NCBI GenBank assembly: GCA_964596425.1
Contig: CAZQTC010000031.1
Location: forward strand, 73,830-137,829
Direction: 5' to 3'
From: an uncultured Spirochaetales bacterium
Lineage (GTDB): Bacteria > Spirochaetota > Spirochaetia > SZUA-6
Length of the DNA: 64,000 bases
Part shown: piece by piece, positions 49,386 to 53,444 of the stretch
Layout of the letters: every line of letters begins with the position of its first letter
Numbering within the stretch: position 1 is the first letter of the stretch
Program-made: the position numbers and the translations under genes
Notes under the pieces: model-generated
What the model was told of the DNA's origin: nothing
Database searches by the model: none
The model's input: only the letters and a program-made list of their open reading frames with translations

Positions 49386-49982
49386 TTAGATTCTATTGAT
49401 AAAGTACCTGTGGAATCGGATGTCTTGAGTCAACTCGGGGTGGAATGCGCTAACCAGGATGTTTTTCTCCTCTGCCGCCACAATGGTGCTATCCCTTAAT
49501 CGTGCGATAACCTTGACATGGGGTCCTGCTTTCTCTATTAATGGGGCTCTTATAAACACTCCGCGCACCGGTTGTTCGCCCAGTACTGGGATGTTCAAGT
49601 CTTCCTCAAAGCTTTCAAGTTGTCTTCCGAATGCGTTTCGTCTCACGGTTATGTCTATTAGGCCCATGGGGGATAGAGATGATACGGTATTGTTTCCCTC
49701 TATTCTTTTTGAGAGGATAATCATTCCGGCGCAGGTTCCATAGATGGGAAGTCCCTCCCTGGCAAGTGTTTTAATCCCTTCTATAAATTTATAGGTTTTG
49801 AGTAGTTTCCATATTGTGGTGCTTTCTCCACCAGGGATTATGAGCGCGTCTATCTTTTCAAGTTGACGTGGCAGTTTTACTAATACGGGTTCAACCTTTA
49901 GTTCTTCCTTGAGACGGAGTATTGTCTCGGCATGTTCTCTAAAGGAACCCTGCAGGGCAAGAATTCCGATTCGTTTCTTCAT
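49386..49982 (-). CDS. pdxT: PLP synthase glutaminase subunit
   Basis: GILALQG, PGGESTT, GTCAGMI, RRNAFGRQ, FIRAP, FHPELT. Confidence 0.96.
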   Translation of the reverse strand: MKKRIGILALQGSFREHAETILRLKEELKVEPVLVKLPRQLEKIDALIIPGGESTTIWKLLKTYKFIEGIKTLAREGLPIYGTCAGMIILSKRIEGNNTVSSLSPMGLIDITVRRNAFGRQLESFEEDLNIPVLGEQPVRGVFIRAPLIEKAGPHVKVIARLRDSTIVAAEEKNILVSAFHPELTQDIRFHRYFINRI

Positions 49983-49986
49983 GAGG

Positions 49987-50868
49987 CTACCATCCTCTTA
50001 CTGCGAGTCTGTCCTTTTGCTCTATCTCCGATAGCTCTATACCGTACATTGCCTCCCCAAGGTTTTTAGAAACCTCTGCAAGGATTGACGGCTCGTTGTA
50101 GTGGGTTGTTGCCTCTACGATTGCTTTGGCTCGCTTGGCCGGGTTTTCGGATTTGAATATACCGGAACCAACAAATATGCCGTCGGCTCCTAGTTGCATC
50201 ATAAGAGCGGCGTCTGCCGGTGTTGCTATTCCGCCTGCTGCAAAATTTACAACGGGGAGTTTTCCCGTTTTTGCAACCCCCAGGACCAGTTCGTATGGAG
50301 CACCCAGGTTTTTTGCCTCTGCCATAAGCTCCTCTTCGCTCATTGAGGTAAGTTTTCTTATCTCGTCCATTACGGTTCGAATGTGCCTAACGGCCTCAAC
50401 AATGTTTCCCGTCCCGGCTTCCCCCTTGGTTCTTATCATAGAGGCTCCCTCGGCTATTCTTCTAAGTGCCTCTCCAAGATCTCTGGCGCCACATACGAAT
50501 GGCACCTTAAAAAGGTTTTTGTTTATATGATGTTTTTCATCGGCCGGTGTTAGAACCTCGCTTTCGTCGATATAATCTACACCGAGAGCCTCCAGGATCT
50601 GTGCCTCGACAAAATGGCCGATTCTTACCTTTGCCATTACTGGGATAGAAACCGCTTTCATTATTTTTTCAATTAGAGCGGGGTCACTCATTCTGGCTAC
50701 TCCTCCCTGTGCTCGTATATCGGCTGGGACTCTCTCTAAAGCCATTACCGCCACCGCACCGGCCTCCTCGGCAATCTGCGCCTGTTCCGGTGTTACTACG
50801 TCCATGATTACCCCACCCTTTAGCATCTGAGCAAGGCCTATTTTTGTTGTAATTGTAGATTTTTCCAT
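49987..50868 (-). CDS. pdxS: PLP synthase lyase subunit
   Basis: [47 protein letters not shown]. Confidence 0.97.
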
Positions 50869-50883
50869 ACTACCTCCTCCTGT

Positions 50884-52428
50884 TTATTTTTGCTTTTCTG
50901 GTTTGAGGGTTGAGCCCTTGTTTAATATTTCTCTCATTAAATCCCCGATTGTCTTAATTCCTCTATCGATTTCCTCCTCATTTGCTGTGGAGAAGGAGAG
51001 TCGAAATCCATTTCTTTGCCACTCTTCGACGGAGAAAAACCTGTCGGGAGAGAATATAACTCCCCTGTCTCTACTCTTGATAAATAGGGAAAGTGAATCT
51101 ATGTTGGGCGAGATTTCCACCCACTGATACAGTCCCCCCTTTGGTCGTTTCCACGAGGCTTCCGGTGGAAAGTACTCTTCCATCGCTCTGTGCATTGCTT
51201 CACTCCTCTTTTTTAGAGAGAGAACTTTTTTCTTTAGAAGTTTTTTGAAAAAACCTCTCCTTAAATACTCAAGAACGGCGGCTTGAAGAATGGGACTGGT
51301 GTAGAGGTCAGAAGATTTTTTAATAAGGATTAATTTTTTTATAATCTCTCTGGGTGCCACGATCCAGCTTAGCCGGATGCCGGAAAAGAGCGTTTCTGAG
51401 AAACTTCCCATGTATATTACAATTTCACTCTCATCCCATGCTTTTAAGGGGGGAATCTCCTTCTTCTCGAATCCAAGCTCGTGAGCATAATCATCCTCCA
51501 CTATAATAGTTTGATTCTCCCTGCATAATTGGAGGAGTGTTAATCTTTTTTCTAGGGGTAAGACATTTCCAAGTGGATTGTGAAATGTGGGGATTGTGTA
51601 TAAAAGTTTAACCCTTCGTCGTTTTAGGACACTTGCAACGATTTCAAGGTTAAGTCCTTCGTGGTTTACAGGTATACCTATACAGTTTGCCTGCAGAGCC
51701 CTGAATATTGTGAGAGCCCCCGGATAGGTTAAATTTTCTAATAGTACGGTGTCTCCCGGATCTATGAATAACCTTCCTACGAGACTAAGTCCCTGCTGTA
51801 TTCCGTTGACTATAAGGATGTTGGCCTCTTCACATTTTATCCCTCTCATAGAGAGAAACTCCACCAGGTATTGGAGGAGAGGTTTAAATCCCTGGGGAGA
51901 GTTTGAGCTTAAGAGAGCACTATTGTATCTGTCAAATGCATAGTTGATAGATTTTTTGAAGTTGTTAATATCGGGGAAAACGGTTTCTGTTGGGTTGGGC
52001 TCTTTAAAGTCCGGGTCGAAAGAGATTAACCGGTCATCGGTTTTAAGGTTTTTTAAATTCGTGAGATTTGTAAGTGTCTCGGAGAAATACCTCGACCATC
52101 CTGTGGAAAAGAGTCCTTCATAGTTCGTTTTCGCGGAGTTGTCTTTCCCTTCAGGGACTATCTTGTTACTATGCAAGTTTTTGAATGGCGGATTTTGTGT
52201 TACAAAGCTCCCCCTGCCAATTTCTGAGCTAATAAATCCCATGGCCTCCAGTTCTTGATATGCTAGGAGTATCACGTTTCTGCTCACACCGAGAGAGAGG
52301 GCAAGTTCCCGTGTTGCGGGCAATTTTGAACCCGGTTTGAGTGATCGGTTCTCTATAAGCCGGATGAGTTGGTCCTTTATCTGTACGTATAGAGGGATGC
52401 CATTTCCCCTATTTAAAGTTAGTATCAT
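50884..52428 (-). CDS. MocR/GabR-family regulator (GntR wHTH + class I aminotransferase fold), PdxR-like, Schiff-base Lys replaced by Glu
   Basis: PLYVQI..LPATRELA..VSR; EDDY; GSFSETL instead of GSFSKxL; directly upstream of pdxS. Confidence 0.88.
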   Translation of the reverse strand: MILTLNRGNGIPLYVQIKDQLIRLIENRSLKPGSKLPATRELALSLGVSRNVILLAYQELEAMGFISSEIGRGSFVTQNPPFKNLHSNKIVPEGKDNSAKTNYEGLFSTGWSRYFSETLTNLTNLKNLKTDDRLISFDPDFKEPNPTETVFPDINNFKKSINYAFDRYNSALLSSNSPQGFKPLLQYLVEFLSMRGIKCEEANILIVNGIQQGLSLVGRLFIDPGDTVLLENLTYPGALTIFRALQANCIGIPVNHEGLNLEIVASVLKRRRVKLLYTIPTFHNPLGNVLPLEKRLTLLQLCRENQTIIVEDDYAHELGFEKKEIPPLKAWDESEIVIYMGSFSETLFSGIRLSWIVAPREIIKKLILIKKSSDLYTSPILQAAVLEYLRRGFFKKLLKKKVLSLKKRSEAMHRAMEEYFPPEASWKRPKGGLYQWVEISPNIDSLSLFIKSRDRGVIFSPDRFFSVEEWQRNGFRLSFSTANEEEIDRGIKTIGDLMREILNKGSTLKPEKQK

Positions 52429-52448
52429 TTTCCTCTCCCCTTTAATAT

Positions 52449-52558
52449 ATTGGTTATTGCATTTAAAAAAAGAGCCAATGCCAGAAAATTTGTACTATGC
52501 CATTCCAATATTACCCTATACTATTACACTATTGGTACTATTATTAGAGCCAGATTGG
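52449..52558. promoter_or_regulatory. Five ATTGG/CCAAT boxes, candidate MocR operator array
   Basis: ATTGG 52449, CCAAT 52475, CCAAT 52505, ATTGG 52531, ATTGG 52554; two inverted pairs each with a 21-bp spacer. Confidence 0.45.
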
Positions 52559-52562
52559 AGAG

Positions 52563-53444
52563 GTGTTTAAAATGCCTGACGGAGAGTGTAGGTTAAAAGG
52601 TCTCGTGGAAATTCATGCGGGCGTGTTGCTGTTTGGACTTGTTGGACTGTTTGGTAAATTGATTAGTTTGCCTCCGATGATAATTGTATTTGGTAGGGTC
52701 TTATTTGCTTCACTTAGTCTCTTCTTATTGCTTGTTTTTTGGGGAAAGTCCATACGATTAAAACGGAAGAGGCATTATTTGTATATGGGTAGTTTGGGAT
52801 TTATTCTTGCGGTTCACTGGACTTCTTTCTTTGAATCAATACGGTTGTCCACAGTTGCCATTGGGTTGCTTACCTTTTCCACTTTTCCCGTGTTTGTGGC
52901 TTTTTTAGAACCCCTGTTTTTTCATGAGAGGTTGGAGTTTAAAGCGGTTGTTCTTGCTGCTTTTGCATTTGGCGGGATAACTCTTATTATACCTGAGTTT
53001 AGAATTGGAGATGCTGTTAGCCGGGGCGTGCTGTGGGGTATGTTTTCCGGTTTGACATTTGCTATTCTTTCTATTCTCAATCGCAGGTTTGTTAGAGATT
53101 ATTCTGGTTATGTTGTAGCTTTTTACCAGGATGTAGGAGCAATGGTGGTCCTTTCCCCCTTTCTCTTTTTATTCAGATTTAGTCTCGAAGTGAGGGATAT
53201 TTGGCTTCTTTTTCTATTGGGAGTTGTTTTTACCGGTTTAGCTCATTCATTGTTTATAGGGGGACTTAAATGTGTAAAATCAAGAACGGCCAGTATAATA
53301 GGAAGTTTAGAACCGGTGTATGGAATTATTGCTGCTATAGTGATACTGGGTGAAAAACCCGCTTTAAAGGTGGTTTTGGGTGGGGTTATTATTATCGGTG
53401 TTGCCCTTTACGAGACTGTTTCTACGCGGAGGAGTGGCTATTGA
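52563..53444 (+). CDS. DMT/EamA family transporter
   Basis: Two EamA repeats; about 10 TMs; LEPVYG. Confidence 0.9.
   Translation: MFKMPDGECRLKGLVEIHAGVLLFGLVGLFGKLISLPPMIIVFGRVLFASLSLFLLLVFWGKSIRLKRKRHYLYMGSLGFILAVHWTSFFESIRLSTVAIGLLTFSTFPVFVAFLEPLFFHERLEFKAVVLAAFAFGGITLIIPEFRIGDAVSRGVLWGMFSGLTFAILSILNRRFVRDYSGYVVAFYQDVGAMVVLSPFLFLFRFSLEVRDIWLLFLLGVVFTGLAHSLFIGGLKCVKSRTASIIGSLEPVYGIIAAIVILGEKPALKVVLGGVIIIGVALYETVSTRRSGY

Follow-up and report, generated by a model that had tools for sequence, protein, structure and literature searches.

A MocR/PdxR-like regulator encoded ahead of pdxS and pdxT in Spirochaetota carries glutamate at the position of the Schiff-base lysine

Can a regulator of vitamin B6 synthesis work without the lysine through which its relatives hold pyridoxal 5'-phosphate (PLP)? 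The question is raised by a gene in a window of 64,000 nucleotides from an uncultured Spirochaetales bacterium (assembly GCA_964596425.1, contig CAZQTC010000031.1, positions 73,830 to 137,829 of the forward strand), the whole stretch of DNA that we analyzed and the one to which the coordinates of Table 1 refer. The gene encodes a MocR/PdxR-like protein, hereafter the regulator, and lies directly ahead of pdxS and pdxT, the genes of the PLP synthase. To our knowledge, all MocRs studied so far (GabR, PdxR, TauR, PtsJ, EnuR) are described as holding PLP via an active-site lysine. An earlier note, made from the letters of the window alone, had claimed that this lysine is missing from the regulator and had offered two explanations, the non-covalent sensing of a non-aldehyde B6 vitamer or the absence of any effector. 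Based on the comparisons described below, we propose that the protein probably regulates its own gene and pdxST by feedback, through the non-covalent binding of a phosphorylated B6 vitamer.

The motif of the regulator reads YMGSFSETLFSGIRLSWIV (that is, GSFSETLFSGIRLSW), and gap-free HMMER alignments place E345 opposite the catalytic K of 'gtfsKil' in the solved aminotransferases 1x0m, 3aov, and 1wst, which bears out the claim that the Schiff-base Lys is replaced by Glu. The PLP-contacting EDDY (residues 311-314) and the R of IRL (R352, in 'GIRLS') are both present, again as the earlier note had it. In a survey of the 120 best 90%-identity clusters, drawn from 5.8 billion proteins, the Schiff-base column contains 98 E, 5 N, 1 D, and 16 K; all matches of at least 46% identity lack the Lys, which is confined to matches of at most 41% identity. 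Glu is conserved clade-wide among pdxST-linked orthologues, and the possibility that all orthologues have Lys, raised in the same note, does not hold, since 104 of the 120 clusters lack it. A FastTree phylogeny of 115 sequences gathers the E/N/D group into one clade (support 100), the sister of which is a small, mostly Lys-bearing group (P0098, P0099, P0122, and P0119, together with the Asn-bearing P0134). Within the clade, the five Asn sequences branch together as one nested group (support 100), and a lone tip carries Asp. Furthermore, codon 345 reads GAG in 9, GAA in 5, GAC in 1, and AAT in 1 of 16 orthologous genes; both Glu codons are in use, so that Glu has persisted despite synonymous turnover. 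The gene-wide pairwise ratio of nonsynonymous to synonymous substitution rates (dN/dS), 0.06-0.13, denotes purifying selection. The lysine loss is clade-wide, old, and kept under purifying selection. An error of sequencing or assembly, or an AAA to GAA mutation private to the source metagenome-assembled genome (MAG), would require a change of one nucleotide only, the distance between the Lys and the Glu codon. Nevertheless, such an origin is excluded, and we attach a negligible probability to it: 98 independent clusters at 90% identity, which come from many assemblies, show the same residue, as do 13 other genomes, both Glu codons are used, and the clade is monophyletic.

Judged by its sequence, the regulator has the MocR architecture, a GntR-type winged helix-turn-helix (wHTH) joined by a linker to an aminotransferase-like domain, and by homology it stands next to PdxR. 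Of the NCBIfam models, the PdxR equivalog NF052282 matches it best: the regulator reaches 321.4 bits where the cut-off is 320, a marginal pass that agrees with the MocR/PdxR-like identity first assigned to it, and the Asn-type relative P0017 reaches 343 bits. Residues 161-502 align with 1x0m and 3aov at an E value of about 3e-62 in HMMER, and R40, R50, N51, G71, and G73 of the wHTH are invariant in an alignment of 20 clade sequences. In the AlphaFold2 model built on this alignment (mean predicted local distance difference test [pLDDT], 81.6), both domains are confident, with a pLDDT of 83-91 for the wHTH and mostly 80-95 for the sensor domain; the linker (residues 82-121) is disordered in the model and poorly conserved in the alignment. 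The best Foldseek matches are LysN/KAT-II-like aminotransferases, with template modelling (TM) scores of 0.87-0.89 over the target, and the next ones are Bacillus subtilis GabR and Bacillus clausii PdxR, which match over their full length. The sensor domain probably derives from the LysN/KAT-II-like enzyme family. The same genome also encodes a stand-alone paralogue of this type (G000:C10:48030-49082, locus L002), a 419-aa open frame with 34% identity to the sensor domain. Current pipelines label the proteins of the clade 'PLP-dependent aminotransferase family protein', '2-aminoadipate transaminase', or PdxR; for a protein that lacks the Lys and has a DNA-binding domain, neither of the first two labels is correct.

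What, then, has become of the rest of the pocket? Its residues were mapped by homology to AAT, KAT-II, GabR, and PdxR. We take Q211, S342, S344, and R352 to contact the phosphate, Y235 to stack on the ring, N284 and Y314 to contact O3', D312 to face the pyridine N, and R476 to bind the substrate carboxylate. Each of these residues occurs in at least 101 of the 103-104 Lys-less sequences that have a residue there. In the 20-sequence alignment, where the mean column identity is 62% and only about 24% of the columns are at least 90% conserved, six of the residues (Q211, Y235, N284, D312, S344, and R352) do not vary at all, and the other three (Y314, S342, and R476) reach a conservation of at least 90%. 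The PLP quartet described for PdxR consists of Lys, Ser, Arg, and Asp (PMC10450172). Three of its members, Ser, Arg, and Asp, are retained in the regulator along with the ring contacts, the fourth, Lys, being the one replaced by Glu. Since the residues for the ring, O3', and the phosphate are all kept, we infer that a phosphorylated B6 vitamer most likely continues to bind in the pocket.

These data bear directly on the suggestion of the earlier note that the regulator might be effector-blind. Its aminotransferase-like domain would then be a mere scaffold for dimerization or DNA bending, and the protein would hold pdxST at a fixed autoregulated level with no sensing of B6. The residue that has been lost is indeed the one that all characterized MocRs use to hold their ligand, and simple negative autoregulation of a one-promoter operon works without a ligand. 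Against this stand the six invariant and three nearly invariant PLP contacts, conserved in a clade that diverges down to 46% identity, the absence of an obvious scaffold role for the conserved phosphate binders S342, S344, R352, and Q211, and the better conservation of Y314 in the Lys-less clade (Y in 101 of 103 sequences) than in the Lys-bearing relatives, in which F, P, Y, and V are mixed. We consequently disfavor an effector-blind regulator and deem it improbable.

The pocket has also changed beyond residue 345. Sixteen positions distinguish the Lys-less clade from Lys-bearing MocRs, and the clade-specific replacements include G354S, D215S, and P233L as well as the rewriting of segment 462-470 from PG..F to PDRFFSVEEW, directly before the carboxylate-binding Arg, which brings in G462D, R463, and W470. 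Because these further changes line the same pocket region, we read the pocket as remodelled and not abandoned; at the level of sequence, the pattern suggests retuning rather than decay. Retuning could in principle have gone as far as a non-B6 ligand, for instance a cofactor-free amino or keto acid or a precursor used by PdxST, in which case pdxST would respond to demand and not to product. The clade-specific remodelling of the substrate side (D462, R463, W470, S215, S354) and the retention of the carboxylate-binding Arg476 speak for such a ligand. Nonetheless, it would not require D312, N284, Y314, Y235, S342, S344, R352, and Q211 all to stay invariant, and the genomic linkage of the clade is strictly to pdxST, so that a switch to a non-B6 ligand seems hardly likely to us.

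Could PLP still be bound covalently, through another lysine in the linker or on a neighbouring strand, so that the regulator works like a canonical PdxR? The linker Lys101 of B. clausii PdxR reaches towards the PLP phosphate (PMC10450172), and in the clade K274 and K399 are invariant and K329, K370, and K401 nearly so. On the other hand, K274 and K329 are also Lys in the archaeal homologue 1x0m and hence are no novelties of the clade, the 341-354 loop contains no conserved Lys, and the linker is, as noted above, poorly conserved and modelled as disordered. In addition, K274 and K329 are presumably situated away from C4'. A substitute lysine therefore appears very improbable.

The genomic setting ties the regulator to B6 synthesis. 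The regulator gene is co-directional with pdxS, as had been noticed from the coordinates: its stop codon (50886..50884) and the pdxS ATG at 50868 are separated by a 15-bp gap with a GGAGG ribosome-binding site, and no minus-strand terminator-like site was found between the two genes. A whole-genome search returned a single pdxS in the source genome. All 15 genome orthologues (L009-L023) show the order regulator-pdxS-pdxT on one strand with short gaps, and the same order is seen at the Asn-type loci L038 and L039 and at the Asp-type locus L043; at L044, pdxS lies directly downstream of the regulator gene and no pdxT match was returned. The hosts are Spirochaetota MAGs, the source names of which include Spirochaetales, Spirochaetaceae, and Spirochaetia bacterium. 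Among 60 relatives of the same taxonomic order, pdxS is found in 51, with the Lys-less regulator alongside in 15 of those, and the orthologues fall in three families, where they occur in 4/4, 6/13, and 5/13 genomes. Among the matches listed, a search of the genome contigs yielded mostly distant MocRs and at least two additional members of the clade. At one orthologous locus (L023, G010:C95:1-3704), the regulator match comes in two pieces that overlap, with a TGA in frame, and the match to pdxS is cut short (176-aa open frame); this operon may be decaying, or the assembly may be in error. We also considered co-directionality with pdxST as a trait specific to the clade and rejected it, as Lys-bearing MocRs of Myxococcota, Anaerolineae, and other groups are likewise co-directional. 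In Bifidobacterium, the regulator gene is located downstream of pdxST.

How might such a regulator act on its own operon? Three CCAAT/ATTGG boxes at fixed spacing precede the regulator gene in 15 of 16 distinct orthologous upstream regions (Table 1). Boxes 1 and 2 are 26-28 bp apart in 14 of the 15 regions that have box 1, the remaining one being L009, where the spacing is 18 bp and the pattern caught a different CCATT; at L016, the pattern matched neither box 1 nor box 2. The distance from box 2 to box 3 is exactly 29 bp in all 15 distinct regions with box 2, and box 3 is present in 16 of 16, at 48-62 bp before the start codon. The box 2-box 3 composite occurs once in the 3.14-Mb genome, and the regulator therefore appears to be local; a wider regulon was sought with strict and loose composite operator patterns, neither of which gave a second convincing site in that genome. 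Two extra CCAAT pentamers (52558-52554 and 52453-52449) flank the three boxes, making five CCAAT/ATTGG copies in 134 bp, and the orthologous upstream regions do not conserve the position of these two. A conserved TGnTATAT-like element, possibly an extended -10, is overlapped by box 2 and has box 3 directly downstream; a simple sigma-70 consensus scan for a promoter gave chance-level matches only. Because of this placement of boxes 2 and 3, we lean towards ligand-promoted repression as the sign of the regulation.

Table 1. Coordinates, strand, and supporting evidence for the features discussed, numbered within the 64,000-nucleotide window
Feature	Position	Strand	Evidence
MocR/PdxR-like regulator gene, lysine-less, 514 aa	50884..52428	-	ORF; Pfam GntR and Aminotran_1_2; NCBIfam PdxR; AlphaFold2; Foldseek
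Glu345 codon GAA, at the PLP Schiff-base lysine position	51394..51396	-	gap-free HMMER alignment to 1x0m, 3aov, 1wst
Ser354 codon AGC, replacing the near-universal Gly of 'GxRxG'	51367..51369	-	E clade S 99/104, C 5/104; Lys-bearing relatives G 142, A 7
GntR-type winged helix-turn-helix (residues 13-76)	52201..52392	-	PF00392, E 8.2e-14
Fold-type-I aminotransferase-like sensor domain (residues 177-494)	50947..51900	-	PF00155 Aminotran_1_2, E 5e-28
Putative operator box 1, TAGTACCAAT, inverted; consensus TAGnnCCAAT	52531..52540	-	orthologous upstream regions compared
Putative operator box 2, ATTGGAATGGCATAGTAC, direct; consensus ATTGGAWTGG(A)TGGTATAT	52492..52509	-	orthologous upstream regions compared
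Putative operator box 3, ATTGGCTCTTT; consensus AATTGGATCTTT; about 50 bp before ATG	52469..52479	-	orthologous upstream regions compared
pdxS (PLP synthase subunit)	49987..50868	-	PF01680, E 5.8e-111
pdxT (PLP synthase glutaminase subunit)	49386..49982	-	PF01174, E 2.1e-58
EamA/DMT-family transporter gene, divergent from the regulator gene	52563..53444	+	PF00892, E 1.7e-34

Which vitamer would be available to the pocket? In the source genome (3.14 Mb, 97.6% complete), PdxJ was not found and no PdxK/ThiD-type kinase matched above the Pfam cut-off; the PNPOx_N domain occurs in one small open reading frame (ORF) only (C1:10308-10604). The B6 supply of this organism thus seems to rest on PdxST alone. 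With neither PdxJ nor a PdxK/ThiD-type kinase, the phosphorylated vitamers to be expected are PLP, made by PdxST, and pyridoxamine 5'-phosphate (PMP), formed in transaminase half-reactions, whereas pyridoxine 5'-phosphate (PNP) is unlikely. Glu is unable to form an aldimine. With PLP, a hydrogen bond from Glu to the aldehyde or its hydrate is conceivable, and with PMP a salt bridge to the ammonium; the Asn and Asp variants would fit either option. The proposal of the earlier note that the regulator senses a non-aldehyde vitamer, PMP or PNP, non-covalently remains plausible in our view, PNP being the less likely of the two; non-covalent PLP fits the data equally well. As for the individual ligands, non-covalent PLP or a PLP adduct is a fair contender, if something short of an even bet. 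A sensor specific for PMP or preferring it, in which Glu, Asp, or Asn would pair with the 4'-aminomethyl group, strikes us as rather unlikely. Should it prove true, this would be the first known case in which a B6 regulator reads PMP and gauges sufficiency from an unreactive amine vitamer, not from the aldehyde PLP, and it would provide an example of a PLP-fold pocket whose covalent cofactor site has become a reversible ligand site.

Our current working model for feedback by a non-covalently bound phosphorylated vitamer is as follows. Early in the history of the clade, the Schiff-base Lys would have given way to Glu, with Asn or Asp appearing in sub-lineages. The regulator would be a head-to-tail dimer that controls its own operon, regulator-pdxS-pdxT, via the three-box CCAAT/ATTGG operator. 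Its binding of the vitamer, for which PLP, a PLP-amino-acid adduct, and PMP are the candidates, would be reversible and non-covalent, and the two wHTH domains would engage different boxes depending on occupancy, as in B. clausii PdxR, so that pdxST would be shut down when B6 is plentiful.

Several points weigh against this model. The non-covalent mode has no experimental precedent in the MocR family, as the characterized MocRs hold their ligand via a Lys aldimine; this is the case for both GabR and PdxR (PMC10450172), and a survey reports Lys312, as well as Asp279, to be conserved in all the MocR clusters defined there (PMC6677901). A negatively charged Glu beside C4' might disfavor the PLP aldehyde, and the conservation of the pocket residues could be due in part to fold stability. 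By homology, E345, S354, and D462 are presumably near the ligand site.

A second gene adjoins the putative operator. The divergent EamA/DMT-family transporter gene shares with the regulator gene the 134-bp operator-bearing intergenic region (52429-52562), and, as it starts only 22 bp beyond box 1, its promoter must overlap the putative operator. The transporter may carry a B6 vitamer. No such divergent neighbour was found at the other orthologous loci, and in the Lys-bearing sister group EamA genes are located within the pdxS cluster (L040).

How exceptional is the loss of the lysine? The regulator has some 37,000 homologues at E≤0.001, stand-alone aminotransferases included. Of 146 added 50%-identity representatives, taken from a search of the whole library, 137 have K and 9 do not; seven representatives without Lys lie outside the clade (7/146, about 5%), bearing S (3), R (2), N (1), or D (1), and are scattered on the tree (P0134 N, P0137 S, P0186 D, P0212 S, P0233 R, P0242 R, P0266 S). 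The idea that Lys-less MocRs are always linked to B6 was discarded after four of these seven had been looked up: P0212 is located by an ECF (energy-coupling factor) S-component gene and P0137 by an aminotransferase gene, and P0134 and P0186 show no B6 link. Two other kinds of Lys-less MocR were encountered next to pdxS-pdxT. An unrelated Thr-type MocR (GTFSTVLFPPLRVGY), which keeps EDDY, has about 30% identity to the regulator, and is divergent from pdxS-pdxT, occurs in two genomes of the same order and of genus g4 (L031:1552-2784, G034; L127, G024:C7:1584-2828); other g4 genomes carry the Glu-type co-directional regulator. A Pro-type MocR (SSLSPVLGPGLRLGW) is encoded directly upstream of pdxS-pdxT in an Anaerolineae MAG (L053:3001-4449, DAOUAJ010000086.1) and represents an independent lysine loss. 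Beside pdxST, loss of the lysine thus seems to be recurrent, which hints at a general rule that the lysine is dispensable where the vitamin is a signal and not a cofactor. A large and old Lys-less clade with an otherwise intact pocket, linked to the PLP synthase genes, would mean that a B6 sensor can dispense with the covalent link, and it offers a natural system to ask which vitamer (PLP, PMP, or an adduct) bacteria monitor and how occupancy reaches the wHTH without an aldimine.

In the full-text literature searched, a scope that leaves aside the FEBS J review (10.1111/febs.14599) and the Bramucci 2011 survey, no Lys-less MocR regulator is described, and a comparative-genomics survey of MocR regulons mentions neither spirochaetes nor lysine loss (PMC5320631). 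A close counterpart is PdxR of B. clausii, Corynebacterium glutamicum, Listeria, and Streptococcus, which like the regulator combines a GntR wHTH with a fold-type-I aminotransferase-like domain and adjoins pdxST. The operator of B. clausii PdxR has two direct repeats along with one inverted repeat, the usage of which switches on PLP binding (PMC10450172); the predicted binding site of the regulator likewise comprises one inverted and two direct short repeats. The differences are nevertheless marked: the Schiff-base Lys of PdxR (Lys309 in B. clausii) is Glu in the regulator, the identity to solved PdxR is only 22-23%, and the regulator has extra clade-specific changes in its pocket (G354S and G462D, among others). 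Moreover, PdxR is divergent from pdxST, whereas the regulator is co-directional and has one promoter region with pdxST, so that the published logic, in which pdxST is activated and pdxR repressed, is inapplicable as such.

GabR of B. subtilis has the same two-domain architecture and fold as the regulator, and homologous PLP pocket residues. In GabR, PLP bound to Lys312 is a cofactor that captures γ-aminobutyric acid (GABA) as an external aldimine; the regulator, unlike GabR, has neither the Lys nor GABA genes, and its predicted target is B6 synthesis. The closest solved sequences and structures are the LysN/KAT-II-like alpha-aminoadipate and kynurenine aminotransferases (1x0m, 3aov, 2egy; E about 3e-62, TM about 0.88), which, as true enzymes, have the catalytic Lys and lack a DNA-binding domain. 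Finally, the Lys-bearing MocRs that are co-directional with pdxST, namely the sister group (P0098, P0099, P0122) and those at loci of Myxococcota, Anaerolineae, and Deltaproteobacteria, share with the regulator its architecture and its position on the strand of pdxS, with pdxT in several of the loci; they differ in that neither the Lys nor the Gly of GxRxG has been lost and in that extra genes (EamA, FMN [flavin mononucleotide]-binding, aminotransferase, PhzF) often separate the regulator gene from pdxS. Set beside these systems, the regulator is, by its sequence, a member of the MocR subfamily to which the description 'covalent PLP' does not apply.

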